From the IMG/VR virus record IMGVR_UViG_2859827302_000001: DNA of 47,387 nucleotides; one strand, written 5' to 3'. Positions 8,927 through 9,679 of this stretch are shown here, piece by piece (position 1 is the first letter of the stretch; every line of letters starts with the position of its first letter). The DNA is from a virus. Its lineage: Duplodnaviria; Heunggongvirae; Uroviricota; Caudoviricetes. Under the pieces are notes generated by a model. The model did not search any database. It was not told the origin of the DNA and saw only the letters and a list, made by a program, of their open reading frames with translations. Both the position numbers and the translations under genes were made by a program.

Positions 8927-9002
8927 GGCCCTTTAGCTCAGTGGTGAGAGCGAGCGACTCATAATCGCCAGGTCGCTGGTTCAAATCCAGCAAGGGCCAC
9001 CA
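8927..9002 (+). tRNA. tRNA with anticodon CAT (Ile2/Met; ileZ-like)
   Basis: Hand-folded cloverleaf: acceptor GGCCCTT/AAGGGCC, T-arm GCTGG-TTCAAAT-CCAGC, anticodon loop CTCATAA, 3' CCA. Confidence 0.8.
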
Positions 9003-9009
9003 TCACATA

Positions 9010-9083
9010 CCGCCATTAGCTCATCAGGAAAGAGCGCCAGCCTTCGAAGCTGGTTGCGCGGAGTTCGGGTCCCCGAAGGCGGT
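9010..9083 (+). tRNA. tRNA-Arg-like (anticodon TCG), possibly degenerate
   Basis: Perfect anticodon arm CCAGC-CTTCGAA-GCTGG and D-arm, but mismatches in acceptor and T stems, T-loop TTCGGGT, no encoded CCA. Confidence 0.5.
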
Positions 9084-9099
9084 TCATTATCTGTATCCT

Positions 9100-9176
9100 G
9101 CGTTGTTAGCTCAGCCGGACAGAGCAATTGCCTTCTAAGCAATCGGTCACTGGTTCGAATACAGTAGAACGCGCCA
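9100..9176 (+). tRNA. tRNA-Arg (anticodon TCT)
   Basis: Anticodon arm ATTGC-CTTCTAA-GCAAT, T-loop TTCGAAT, 3' GCCA. Confidence 0.8.
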
Positions 9177-9426
9177 CACTTATTTTCCCTGGCTCGCTTT
9201 TGCGGGCTTTTTTTTAAATGTCTCACAATTCAGGCGGTTGACTGTTGTCTGGTTTGCGGGGAGTTTGTTAAAAGAAACTGGCATGGTGAATCCCCCTGTG
9301 CGGAGGGGCAATCAGCAACTGGTGTTTTGTCACCGACCCTTATCCTTTCTGTGCGGGTTCAGGTGCTGATACTGAACTCACCGGGAGGCACCCGGCACCA
9401 TGCAATGGCACATAGCGCCACTCTCC

Positions 9427-9453
9427 AGCCCCTCTCCGGAGGGGCTTTCTTAT
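9427..9453 (+). terminator. rho-independent terminator-like hairpin
   Basis: AGCCCCTC-TCCG-GAGGGGCT then TTTCTTAT. Confidence 0.4.
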
Positions 9454-9455
9454 GG

Positions 9456-9486
9456 ACAAAAAAAGCCCGCGCTGGGAGACGCGGGC
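9456..9486 (-). terminator. rho-independent terminator-like hairpin (minus-strand sense)
   Basis: GCCCGCG stem with 8-nt loop; A-run on plus strand gives a U-run on minus. Confidence 0.4.
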
Positions 9487-9679
9487 GGCAAGGAATAAAC
9501 AACAAAACGTGAAGTAATATTTCAGCTGGTGAATAATATCCGACAGTAATCACTCTGCGCAATAGCGCGGCCTTTTTCATATTGCGGGCTGTTGTCTATC
9601 TTCTGCCATTGTCCTGTAACTTCCGGACTTCAGCCCGCTCCTCATGTTACTCACAATATTATCCAGGCCGGGAGGATTC

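Follow-up and report, generated by a model that had tools for sequence, protein, structure and literature searches.

A probable toxin-free moron site of a Sakai Sp4-type prophage, with three tRNA genes and two convergent genes for Hfq-binding sRNAs

Positions 8927-9679 of the window (the whole 47,387-nt stretch of viral DNA that was analysed) very probably represent a toxin-free 'moron' insertion site in the late operon of a lambdoid prophage of the Sakai Sp4 type, and two convergent genes for Hfq-binding sRNAs in the spacer form part of the same reading, with the same high degree of confidence. The order from 5' to 3' is ileZ (CAU), argN (UCG), argO (UCU), a terminator, an sRNA gene of the STnc100 family (+ strand), an sRNA gene of the EcOnc08/21/42 family (- strand) and the 5' region of nanS-p. 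The earlier note described ~500 bp with only hairpins between the tRNA genes and nanS-p; this description was incorrect, as two convergent, experimentally described Hfq-binding sRNA genes lie inside. Since the spacer is made up of three phage tRNA genes and two already published sRNA genes that face each other, the arrangement is a known and ordinary one, and the element is not of a new kind: the toxin-free slot and the sRNA pair are both already known. At least eight Sakai prophages have been described to carry convergent dyads of Hfq-binding sRNAs at the moron site, 3' of pR', for which northern sizes and Hfq CRAC data are available (PMC4104026), and stx has been found to be 'bookended' by such sRNAs (PMC7873438; PMC7547250). 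Standard genome annotation of the region records tRNAs and CDSs only, so that the spacer appears empty. The lesson for annotation is that two Hfq-dependent regulators accompany the Shiga-toxin genes and persist in toxin-free and decayed prophages.

The segment 8920-9760 was compared with the stx-negative prophage Sp4 of E. coli O157:H7 Sakai, which carries ileZ1-argN1-argO1, EcOnc05 (+), EcOnc08/21 (-) and ECs_1088 (Sakai; Tree et al. 2014). The identity was 97%, junction included, which bears out the suggestion that the locus belongs to an stx-negative relative. Gene order, toxin-free junction, argN defects and the convergent sRNA pair are alike in the two. The window differs from Sp4 in two extra stem mismatches in argO, the loss of the CCA end of argN, a variable loop of the plus-strand sRNA that is 15 nt longer, an in-frame stop in nanS-p (which is intact in Sp4) and an upstream region replaced by IS elements.

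The position of the missing toxin genes was located by comparison with Stx2 phages. In BLASTN alignments, window 8600-9214 corresponds to 1550-2165 of the Stx2-phage locus L001 and 9219-9987 corresponds to 3501-4286, and these breakpoints place the empty toxin junction at 9215-9218. Stx2 phages hold 1335 bp (stx2 leader, stx2A, stx2B and 41 nt) between the equivalents of 9214 and 9219, with position 9219 corresponding to 41 nt past the stx2B stop codon. The left flank 8600-9214 (methylase, tRNAs and terminator) is 90-91% identical to Stx2 phages and homology resumes at 9219, in agreement with the earlier assignment of the spacer to the stx position of lambdoid phages in its toxin-free state. 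Apart from the 1335 bp with stx2AB, the Stx2 phages (Sakai Sp5/933W type, Stx2a_WGPS2 and Stx2d_112808) share with the window the order methylase, ileZ-argN-argO, terminator, STnc100/EcOnc27 and DUF1737-esterase. Because the sRNA genes also occur downstream of stxB in toxin phages, the vacant toxin site measures only ~4 nt (9215-9218) and not 500 bp. The toxin insertion point is thereby narrowed to a few nucleotides, after the tRNA terminator and before the STnc100 gene, and such a precise point is useful in genome screens for stx-negative relatives of Stx phages.

A search of the whole window with Stx1A/B and Stx2A/B by tblastn gave a best E value of 0.5, and blastn with stx cassettes yielded only chance matches of 14-19 nt over the window. 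Both searches support the earlier statement that no toxin ORF lies between the tRNAs and DUF1737/nanS-p; where a Stx-converting locus has stxA and stxB ORFs between the tRNAs (or tR') and the sRNA dyad, the window has the junction 9214|9219. In Stx phages the stxAB operon is placed between the tRNA terminator (or tR') and the plus-strand sRNA; the window carries the same site without cassette and without scar.

ARAGORN predicted exactly three tRNAs in the whole 47-kb window (8927-9002, 9009-9085 and 9100-9176), all on the + strand, and the Rfam tRNA model (gathering score 29 bits) called the same three, so that the trio proposed from the bare sequence stands. The first (8927-9002, Rfam 72.5 bits) is an intact ileZ-type tRNA with anticodon CAU (CAT in the DNA), identical in sequence to ileZ2 of Sakai Sp5. 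An identification of this CAT tRNA as Met was rejected, since it is ileZ (tRNA-Ile2) and its homologues are annotated as tRNA-Ile in RefSeq. The tRNA-Ile2 (CAU) reads AUA after lysidine modification. The second, a tRNA-Arg(UCG) of the argN type (9009-9086), scores 43.4 bits versus 55.9-56.3 bits for the argN of Stx2 phages and is partly degenerate, as had been suspected: the acceptor stem contains an A.A and the T-stem an A.C mismatch, and position 58 of the T-loop is G instead of A, all of which are also present in Sp4 argN1; a further, window-specific change is the 3' end TCA instead of CCA. The third, a tRNA-Arg(UCU) of the argO type (9100-9176), scores 53.4 bits versus 70.1 bits in Sp4 and Stx2 phages. 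Two window-specific stem defects were found here, a G.G in the acceptor stem and a G.A at the conserved 53-61 pair, neither of which occurs in Sp4 or Sp5; besides the middle tRNA noted earlier, the third one is thus damaged as well. An exact 46-mer spanning the decayed argO and the terminator behind it had no match among species-representative genomes, and the best matches in complete E. coli genomes reached ~96% across the full query. The cluster follows a methylase gene with the anticodons CAU, UCG and UCU in this order, as in ileZ-argN-argO, and of its members only ileZ is intact in cloverleaf and encoded CCA. Functional copies would read AUA, AGA/AGG and CGA/CGG, all of them rare codons in the host.

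The hairpins of the spacer were examined with a consensus scan for terminators, which detected 5 sites in 8700-10000 versus 1.4 ± 0.9 in shuffled sequences. Terminator-like sites were found on the + strand at 9191-9208 (followed by a T-run), 9427-9446 and 9555-9570, and on the - strand at 9486..9465 (T-run 9464-9458). The calculated folding energies were -11.4 kcal/mol (z -2.9) for the site at 9191-9208 and -16.9 kcal/mol (z -3.95) for the minus-sense site. Scan and energies together indicate that the hairpins seen before are real, including the one proposed as a minus-sense terminator. Two of the three hairpins of the earlier note are the back-to-back terminators of the two sRNA genes, which abut at 9457/9458, and the third is the intrinsic terminator that closes the tRNA cluster (9191-9215, + strand; stem 9191-9208, T-run to 9215). 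The latter is kept in the Stx2-phage loci L001 and L003, where it lies directly before the stx2 cassette, upstream of stx2A.

The plus-strand sRNA gene (Rfam match 9252-9457, terminator 9427-9446) was identified by a match to the full Rfam model RF02076 (positions 1-206; 143.2 bits versus a GA of 47) and belongs to the STnc100 family, EcOnc05/EcOnc27/sRNA103 type. The helices of the family (long-range closing stem, three internal hairpins and terminator) are present in the cmscan alignment. Covariation support is thin: RNAalifold on six homologues gave 34 pairs of which three are compensatory, with few pairs broken except in PasD2. Folding of both sRNAs of the spacer as whole RNAs gave z-scores of only -1.5 and -1.7, too small to be informative. 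From the PasD2 coordinates and the ~222-nt northern signal in Sp4, the 5' end is likely to be at ~9281, behind an extended -10 (TGtTAAAAG, 9266-9274), or at ~9221. Homologues of STnc100 are located directly 3' of stxB in Stx1, Stx2a and Stx2d phages and in Sakai Sp5, the distance from stxB being ~75 nt in Stx1 and Stx2 phages, and a copy is present in Sp4; the gene in the window has the corresponding location in the late region of the lambdoid prophage, between the stx/moron site and the esterase gene. The published northern probes EcOnc05/06/13/27 all map to STnc100 copies. EcOnc05-type homologues are ~177-247 nt long and show Hfq CRAC peaks (Tree 2014 Table S2, PMC4104026), and STnc100, EcOnc27 and sRNA103 are one and the same RNA (PMC12711010). 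The small transcript that had been predicted to end near 9456 corresponds to a published sRNA. Published information on the function of STnc100 consists of overexpression effects and in-silico proposals only; overexpression of the Sp5 homologue raised the fimZ and espA transcripts.

PasD and STnc100 are of common ancestry, and the esterase gene follows pasD directly (bioRxiv 10.64898/2026.05.13.724894). PasD1 and PasD2 of EPEC E2348/69 (Pearl Mizrahi 2021; Zhu, Shabalina & Storz 2026) share this location with the plus-strand sRNA of the window, together with homologous 5' and central domains, the closing helix GCAUGGUG/CGCCAUGC and the conserved extended -10. They differ in having another 3' domain with the seed CCUUGUGAG and another terminator, and in PP2 there is no convergent partner. 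In alignments, the PasD 3' domain (seed complementary to CUCACA(GG)) and the PasD terminator were absent from the plus-strand sRNA of the window, and its identification as PasD was rejected because of the different 3' domain.

The minus-strand gene (9458-9651), convergent with STnc100, was assigned to the EcOnc08/21/42 family of Hfq-dependent sRNAs on the basis of a probe match and homology. The published northern probe EcOnc08/21/42 matches the + strand at 9532-9566 in 35 of 35 positions, in the orientation that detects a minus-strand RNA. Over 9458-9651, the identity is 97% both with Sp4 and with the EPEC copy, and the seed is identical to that of EPEC; judged from the sequence, the gene is of the type of the EPEC sRNA E2348C_1409.E2348C_1408.IGR known from RIL-seq. 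This EPEC sRNA has a length of 182 nt and has been described as homologous to EcOnc08/21/42; the motif GGCA[A/G]GG is common to its targets, its partners include cfa (767 chimeras), dppA (197) and tir, and the chimeric fragments fall in the 3' seed and not in the 5' part (PMC8550237). In the window, the seed region GUUUUGUUGUUUAUUCCUUGCC occupies 9508..9487, with CCUUGCC (GGCAAGG on the + strand, 9487-9493) directly 5' of the Rho-independent terminator (9486..9465, U-tail to 9458). A promoter-like site was found with a -35 at 9686..9681 and a -10 (GATAAT) at 9663..9658. EPEC RNA-seq and the promoter scan put the 5' end at ~9639-9651; it would be ~9728 if the ~271-nt EHEC northern applies. The length estimates disagree: 182 nt in EPEC, ~271 nt in the EHEC northern and 70 nt for the predicted short form discussed below.

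The proposed mode of action is taken from homologues that are 96-100% identical. In a lysogen without Q antitermination, each sRNA would be transcribed from its own sigma-70 promoter and end at its own terminator, and each would bind Hfq and base-pair in trans with host and island mRNAs. The minus-strand sRNA would pair via the single-stranded GU-rich/CCUUGCC segment that immediately precedes its terminator, and candidate segments for pairing with dppA and cfa would be UUUGUUGUUU/AAACAACAAA and CCUUGCC/GGCAAGG. For dppA and cfa, the duplex energies calculated with the minus-strand sRNA did not improve on those of shuffles, and a 10-nt perfect complement to dppA was equalled in 66 of 1000 composition-preserving shuffles. 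As the computed pairing does not exceed that of shuffles, we rely on the published RIL-seq data instead.

In principle, the minus-strand RNA could act mainly as a cis-antisense regulator of the 5' region of DUF1737/nanS-p and not as a trans-acting sRNA. Its transcription from within or beside the nanS-p 5' UTR would suit such a role, as would the overlap of the promoter-like -35 with the ATG at 9680; if the EHEC size applies, a start near 9728 would cover the ribosome-binding site and the start codon of nanS-p. However, EPEC RNA-seq places the 5' end at the equivalent of window ~9639, 41 nt before the ATG, and the RIL-seq partners in trans are abundant (cfa and dppA, see above), with the chimeric fragments in the 3' seed. 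A mainly cis-acting role is therefore regarded as unlikely, and we retain the assignment to a trans-acting sRNA.

A further, tentative proposal that we consider doubtful is that the minus-strand gene is one allele of a swappable sRNA cassette with AsxR/AgvB promoter architecture, yielding a ~70-nt isoform that acts as a GcvB-like repressor of dppA. Alignment revealed an internal promoter-like element on the - strand (9533-9562) with a -35 (TTGCGC, 9562..9557), an 18-nt spacer and a -10 (TATTAT, 9538..9533), which matches the AsxR promoter of Sp5 in position. The 5' end of AsxR has been mapped to 4682 of locus L004; TAAAAT precedes it by 5 nt, and the same TTGCGC lies another 18 nt upstream. 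Transcription from an internal start near 9527 would yield a so far undescribed RNA of ~70 nt (9527..9458), and the CRAC peak of EcOnc08 falls at window ~9460-9532; the published northern probe (9532-9566), being placed upstream of this predicted start, could not detect the short species. The exposed GU-rich seed may resemble GcvB R1 (UUUGUUGUUU...CCUUGCC) and would then pair with the CA-rich GcvB site in the dppA 5'UTR. If true, alternative alleles at one prophage site would push the GcvB-dppA axis of the host in opposite ways, AgvB being a sponge that relieves repression and the window allele a GcvB-like repressor.

The prophage has decayed to a remnant. Residues 1-47 of the methylase are missing, the gene being truncated at residue 48 beside an IS block, and IS1 is present in the lysis region. 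No homologue of the two types of Q antiterminator tested was found in the window; in a Stx locus, Q and pR' lie upstream and drive the late operon. On the right side, Pfam located DUF1737 at 9680-9913 and a SASA/DUF6645 esterase at 9947-11575. Both domains expected downstream of the tRNAs are thus present, but they do not form a pair of genes: a single nanS-p-type gene (9680-11575, + strand; DUF1737 N-domain plus SASA esterase) carries an in-frame TAA (9911-9913) that divides it. In frame 0 its translation is ...NPEY*FVVALAGQSNGMAYGEG, whereas ECs_1088 of Sp4 is uninterrupted and comprises 616 aa; an annotated-style restart ATG is found at 9947, after the GQSN block. In such a remnant, only features with promoters of their own could still be expressed.

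Because the prophage is degraded, the sRNA promoters could be silent, and the two genes might be relics that are recognisable by homology but silent or functionless, with the hairpins serving at most as passive terminators or insulators. The negative search with the two Q types, the truncated methylase, the stop in nanS-p, the damage to argN and argO and the IS1 insertion are in line with this explanation. Against it, the minus-strand sRNA shares 97% identity with homologues that are expressed and has kept its seed, its terminator and its promoter-like hexamers, the 3' half of the plus-strand sRNA is 100% identical to the Stx1-phage copy, and homologues are expressed independently of Q from lysogens and cryptic prophages (PMC4104026; PMC8550237). 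We regard relics as improbable; the good preservation of the sRNA genes, compared to the decayed tRNAs, nanS-p and late promoter region, fits host selection on the sRNAs.

The toxin-free state could also result from a recent loss, in which a formerly carried stxAB was deleted precisely from between the tRNA terminator and the sRNA. In favour of such a loss, the window has homologous sequence on either side of a clean gap where Stx2 phages carry the cassette, and in those phages the short motif ATCTG recurs close to each cassette end. However, chance alone is expected to produce a 5-nt repeat near two ends, and the ATCTG microhomology was discarded as too short to tell from chance. No stx remnants are left in the window, and its flanks are 9-21% diverged from Stx2 phages and mosaic, the left one being Stx2-like and the right one 96-100% Stx1-phage-like, while that Stx1 phage is without tRNAs. 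The identical toxin-free junction is present in Sp4, and a 101-mer across it (9165-9265, counted at ≥80% coverage) occurs in 937 of 5426 complete E. coli genomes, from many pathotypes. The spread of the junction, the mosaic and diverged flanks and the lack of remnants disfavour a recent deletion, which we judge very unlikely. The Stx1 phage in question, NC_004913 (Sp15 type, with EcOnc42 3' of stx1AB), resembles the window in the right flank, with a minus-strand sRNA that is 96% identical and a 35/35 match to the EcOnc08/21/42 probe. It differs in the missing tRNA cluster, in having stx1AB directly after Q-pR'-tR' and in the 5' half of the plus-strand sRNA, which is divergent from the window.

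The slot of the minus-strand gene is filled differently among the Stx2 phages: the convergent partner is AsxR in Sp5 and the same allele as in the window in Stx2d_112808. Membership of the minus-strand element in the AsxR/AgvB family of anti-sRNAs or sponges (RF02703, RF02702) is extremely unlikely and was rejected: it is a convergent partner of STnc100 at the moron site as AsxR and AgvB are, with the slot and orientation of AsxR in Sp5, the upstream -35 TTGCGC with 18-nt spacer and the back-to-back terminators in common, but the RNA body and length differ (the sponges are 51-60 nt), the conserved ~42-nt 3' body of the anti-sRNAs is missing, the RIL-seq partners of the homologue are mostly mRNAs, and the Rfam models gave no match at E ≤ 1 in the window and 88.1 bits (AsxR) and 40.9 bits (AgvB) in the Sp5 control. 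Two minus-strand ORFs in the same stretch were likewise rejected as genes: the 73-aa ORF at 9359..9580 ('ORF b70' in NC_004913) runs through both terminators, and the 34-aa ORF at 9577..9681 is without a Shine-Dalgarno sequence and has its frame broken by a 2-nt deletion in the Stx2d phage.

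The stretch between the tRNA genes and the nanS-p region was found to carry two convergent small RNA (sRNA) genes. On the plus strand, a full-length match to STnc100 (RF02076) was obtained at 9252-9457 in an Rfam scan, with 143.2 bits and a gathering score of 47. In each toxin phage compared, STnc100 directly follows stxB: at 3534-3748 in the Stx2 phage Stx2d_112808 (stx2B end at 3459), 3534-3749 in the Stx2 phage Stx2a_WGPS2, 3375-3584 in the Stx1 phage NC_004913 (stx1B end at 3296) and 4423-4628 (207.7 bits) in Sp5, the stx2 prophage of E. coli O157:H7 Sakai. The RNA downstream of stx2B is the Hfq-binding sRNA EcOnc27, alias sRNA103; overexpression of STnc100 increased fimZ and espA, and complementarity to stxB has been proposed (PMC12711010; PMC7873438). 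All four northern probes, for EcOnc05, EcOnc06, EcOnc13 and EcOnc27, hit copies of STnc100 and are oriented to detect a plus-strand RNA. A small transcript ending near 9456, for which the earlier note suggested looking, is thus likely from the match to this published family, which ends at 9457.

At least eight Sakai prophages have convergent sRNA pairs 3' of the late promoter pR' at the moron site, the late-operon position where related lambdoid phages carry stxAB (Tree et al. 2014, PMC4104026); the EcOnc27 and AsxR dyad 3' of stx2B is an example (PMC4104026). In Sp5, AsxR (4682..4630, 88 bits) runs antiparallel to STnc100, and the two terminators abut. The geometry in the window is alike, with sRNA ends abutting at 9457 and 9458, and the Rfam scan of the window gave no match to AsxR or AgvB. 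In the alignment, one allele other than AsxR is common to the window, Stx2d_112808 and the Stx1 phage at the convergent-partner position. By sequence, this minus-strand allele (9458..9651) is the published EcOnc08/21/42 RNA. The EcOnc08/21/42 northern probe AATAATATCCGACAGTAATCACTCTGCGCAATAGC equals the plus strand at 9532-9566 with 0 mismatches and therefore detects a minus-strand RNA; it is also exact in the stx-negative Sakai prophage Sp4 and in the Stx1 phage. EcOnc42 has been described as an sRNA 'bookending' stx1AB at its 3' end (PMC7547250), and the EPEC RNA 'E2348C_1409.E2348C_1408.IGR' (182 nt, minus strand) is called a homologue of EcOnc08/21/42 by its authors (PMC8550237). Window and EPEC copy are 97% identical over 9458-9651, and the seed region GUUUUGUUGUUUAUUCCUUGCC (9508..9487), just 5' of the terminator, is the same in both.

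The closest described locus is that of Sp4, to which 8920-9760 is 97% identical. The order in Sp4 is ileZ1-argN1-argO1, a spacer of ~490 bp and ECs_1088, and the window and Sp4 share the junction sequence TTTTTTTTAAATGTCTCACAATTCAG. Probe mapping showed that the published Sp4 coordinates hold without offset, so the Hfq-CRAC peaks of Tree et al. can be transferred to the window. The plus-strand EcOnc05 peak (northern ~222 nt) falls inside the STnc100 match, and the minus-strand EcOnc08 and EcOnc21 peaks (both ~271 nt in northerns) fall at ~9460-9532 and ~9538-9623, respectively.

The tRNA trio was recovered by ARAGORN at the positions read in the earlier note, all on the plus strand and with no further tRNA gene in the entire window: ileZ (CAT, 8927-9002), argN (TCG, 9009-9085) and argO (TCT, 9100-9176), scoring 72.5, 43.4 and 53.4 bits with the Rfam tRNA model. 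This cluster of Stx and lambdoid phages has been described previously. Whereas ileZ is undamaged, argN is degenerate as suspected, sharing with argN1 of Sp4 an acceptor-stem A.A, a T-stem A.C and a G at T-loop position 58, and having lost its encoded CCA in addition. Two window-specific defects in argO (an acceptor-stem G.G and a G.A at the 53-61 pair) accompany a fall in score from 70.1 bits.

Searches with Stx1A/B and Stx2A/B (tblastn) and with stx cassettes (blastn) gave only chance-level matches across the window, in agreement with the reported lack of a toxin ORF. Window positions 8600-9214 align to 1550-2165 of an Stx2-phage sequence (L001; 90% identity) and 9219-9987 to 3501-4286 (79% identity), which places a Stx2 toxin cassette of 1335 bp between the breakpoints. 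Its left edge follows directly on the T-run of the tRNA terminator, and its right edge lies 41 nt beyond the stop codon of stx2B. The vacant toxin site is thus only ~4 nt (9215-9218), and the ~500-bp empty position described earlier was an occupied sRNA locus taken for empty DNA. The proposed stx context stands, with a left flank 90-91% identical to Stx2 phages and STnc100 3' of stxB in toxin phages. Of the alternatives offered, an stx-negative relative like Sp4 fits; recent loss of the toxin by deletion from any sampled Stx phage is disfavoured by the mosaic flanks: the left one is Stx2-like and has no counterpart in the Stx1 phage, and the right one is Stx1-like (identity to the Stx1 phage of 100% for the 3' half of the plus-strand sRNA and 96% for the minus-strand sRNA). 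The toxin may have been lost long ago or never gained. Of 5426 complete E. coli genomes, 937 contain a 101-mer spanning the junction at ≥80% coverage, and one match is 100% identical.

Terminator-like hairpins were enriched in 8700-10000 (5, versus 1.4±0.9 in shuffles; consensus scan). Plus-strand hairpins are at 9191-9208 (followed by a T-run; folding z −2.9), at 9427-9446, where the STnc100 match ends, and at 9555-9570; the minus-sense hairpin (9486..9465, T-run at 9464-9458) had a z of −3.95. Hairpins had thus been correctly noted, the minus-sense one included, but the spacer does not hold 'only hairpins', given the two sRNA genes. The hairpin at 9555-9570, followed by CCTTTTTC, is kept in all Stx and non-Stx relatives, and is a candidate plus-strand terminator ahead of nanS-p or a candidate part of the minus-strand RNA. 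Read on the minus strand, this hairpin overlaps the −35 TTGCGC that the internal promoter-like site of the window has in common with the AsxR promoter.

Each sRNA would be transcribed from its own promoter and halt at the abutting terminators. The plus-strand copy has the 5' and central domains in common with PasD2, but its 3' domain is of the Sp4/Stx1-phage type and lacks both the seed and the terminator of PasD. PasD2 is estimated to start at the G of GCAUGG, 8 nt past a −10-like TAAAAA. The window aligns there with TAAAAG after a TGt (extended −10 form), in one of the stretches that the homologues conserve best. This element (TGtTAAAAG, 9266-9274) predicts a start at ~9281 and a length of 177 nt, which is the reported size of EcOnc06 and close to that of PasD. 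An alternative start at ~9221 would follow from the ~222-nt EcOnc05 northern in Sp4. For the minus-strand sRNA, a promoter-like site (−35 at 9686..9681, −10 GATAAT at 9663..9658) predicts a start at ~9651; the EPEC RNA-seq estimate would map to ~9639, and the ~271-nt EHEC northern, if applicable, to ~9728, inside the nanS-p coding start. An internal promoter-like element on the minus strand (−35 TTGCGC at 9562..9557, 18-nt spacer, −10 TATTAT at 9538..9533) corresponds in position to the promoter behind the mapped AsxR start of Sp5; if active, it would yield an RNA of ~70 nt.

Near-identical homologues of both sRNAs are known to be expressed from lysogens and bound by Hfq, and those of the minus-strand sRNA to form chimeras with particular mRNAs. 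For the EPEC copy, the partners in RIL-seq include the cfa 5'UTR (767 chimeras), the dppA 5'UTR (197), tir, emrA and pcm, with GGCA[A/G]GG as the common target motif (PMC8550237). Pairing would occur via the GU-rich/CCUUGCC seed. Both mRNAs have candidate sites: UUUGUUGUUU could pair with AAACAACAAA at a CA-rich element that immediately precedes the dppA start, and CCUUGCCG with CGGCAAGG within the 5'UTR of cfa. Complementarity and duplex energies alike were no better than in composition-preserving shuffles, and the targeting claim thus rests on the published RIL-seq rather than on our computation. Spot 42 (nt 40-50; sequence confirmed against 5425 E. coli genomes) and the minus-strand sRNA (9517..9507) share 11 nt, UUACUUCACGU. 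With so many known sRNAs available for comparison, chance could well explain the match, whose sole interest is that Spot 42 regulates sialic-acid genes and that nanS-p adjoins the locus.

In the annotated RefSeq records inspected (e.g. L005, Sakai Sp4), tRNAs and CDSs alone are annotated at homologous loci; neither STnc100 nor the convergent sRNA has an ncRNA feature, which is why the spacer looks empty. The antisense ORF b70 of NC_004913 is probably spurious. Every element of the locus has been described: the tRNA cluster, the moron site, the Hfq-sRNA dyad (Tree et al. 2014) and both sRNA families (STnc100, EcOnc27 and PasD; EcOnc08/21/42 and the EPEC homologue). A possible allele swap and short isoform of the minus-strand gene would be the sole mildly novel angle. 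Tandem STnc100 copies at one locus were seen in E. albertii (L010; 4825-5013 and 5289-5482) and, two each, in Enterobacter (L008, L014). An 888-bp 'Xanthomonas pisi' contig (L016, NZ_JPLE01000080.1) carries an STnc100 and AsxR dyad whose Rfam scores (207.7 and 88.1 bits) equal those in Sakai Sp5; the assembly is very likely contaminated with EHEC-derived DNA.

Both sRNA genes stand out as well preserved in an otherwise decayed background. The DUF1737 ORF (9680-9913, 77 aa) and the SASA/DUF6645 esterase ORF (9947-11575, 542 aa; both Pfam), read earlier as a DUF1737/nanS-p pair, are both present but constitute one nanS-p-type gene (9680-11575) split by an in-frame TAA (9911-9913); in Sp4 the gene is unbroken (616 aa). 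The next ATG (9947) lies downstream of the GQSN block, so the esterase is probably inactive. The SASA match covers the Pfam profile from position 57 on. Upstream, Ea22 and an integrase fragment border an IS3-family block (~5937-7991), which we take to comprise IS600-like orfB and IS911-like orfA and orfB, between Ea22 and a DNA methylase (7921-8877) lacking its first 47 residues. No homologue of either of two types of the late antiterminator Q tested was found within the window, and the late operon is thus cut off from pR'. IS1-like insA and insB (12665-13362, minus strand) break the lysis cassette, between the DUF1327 gene (11943-12671) and the lysozyme gene (13566-14099). An Rfam ALIL pseudoknot (16014-16130, 120 bits), a frameshift signal of IS3-family transposases, adjoins a 296-aa ORF (16056-16946); this is a further IS copy, close to where the structural genes begin.
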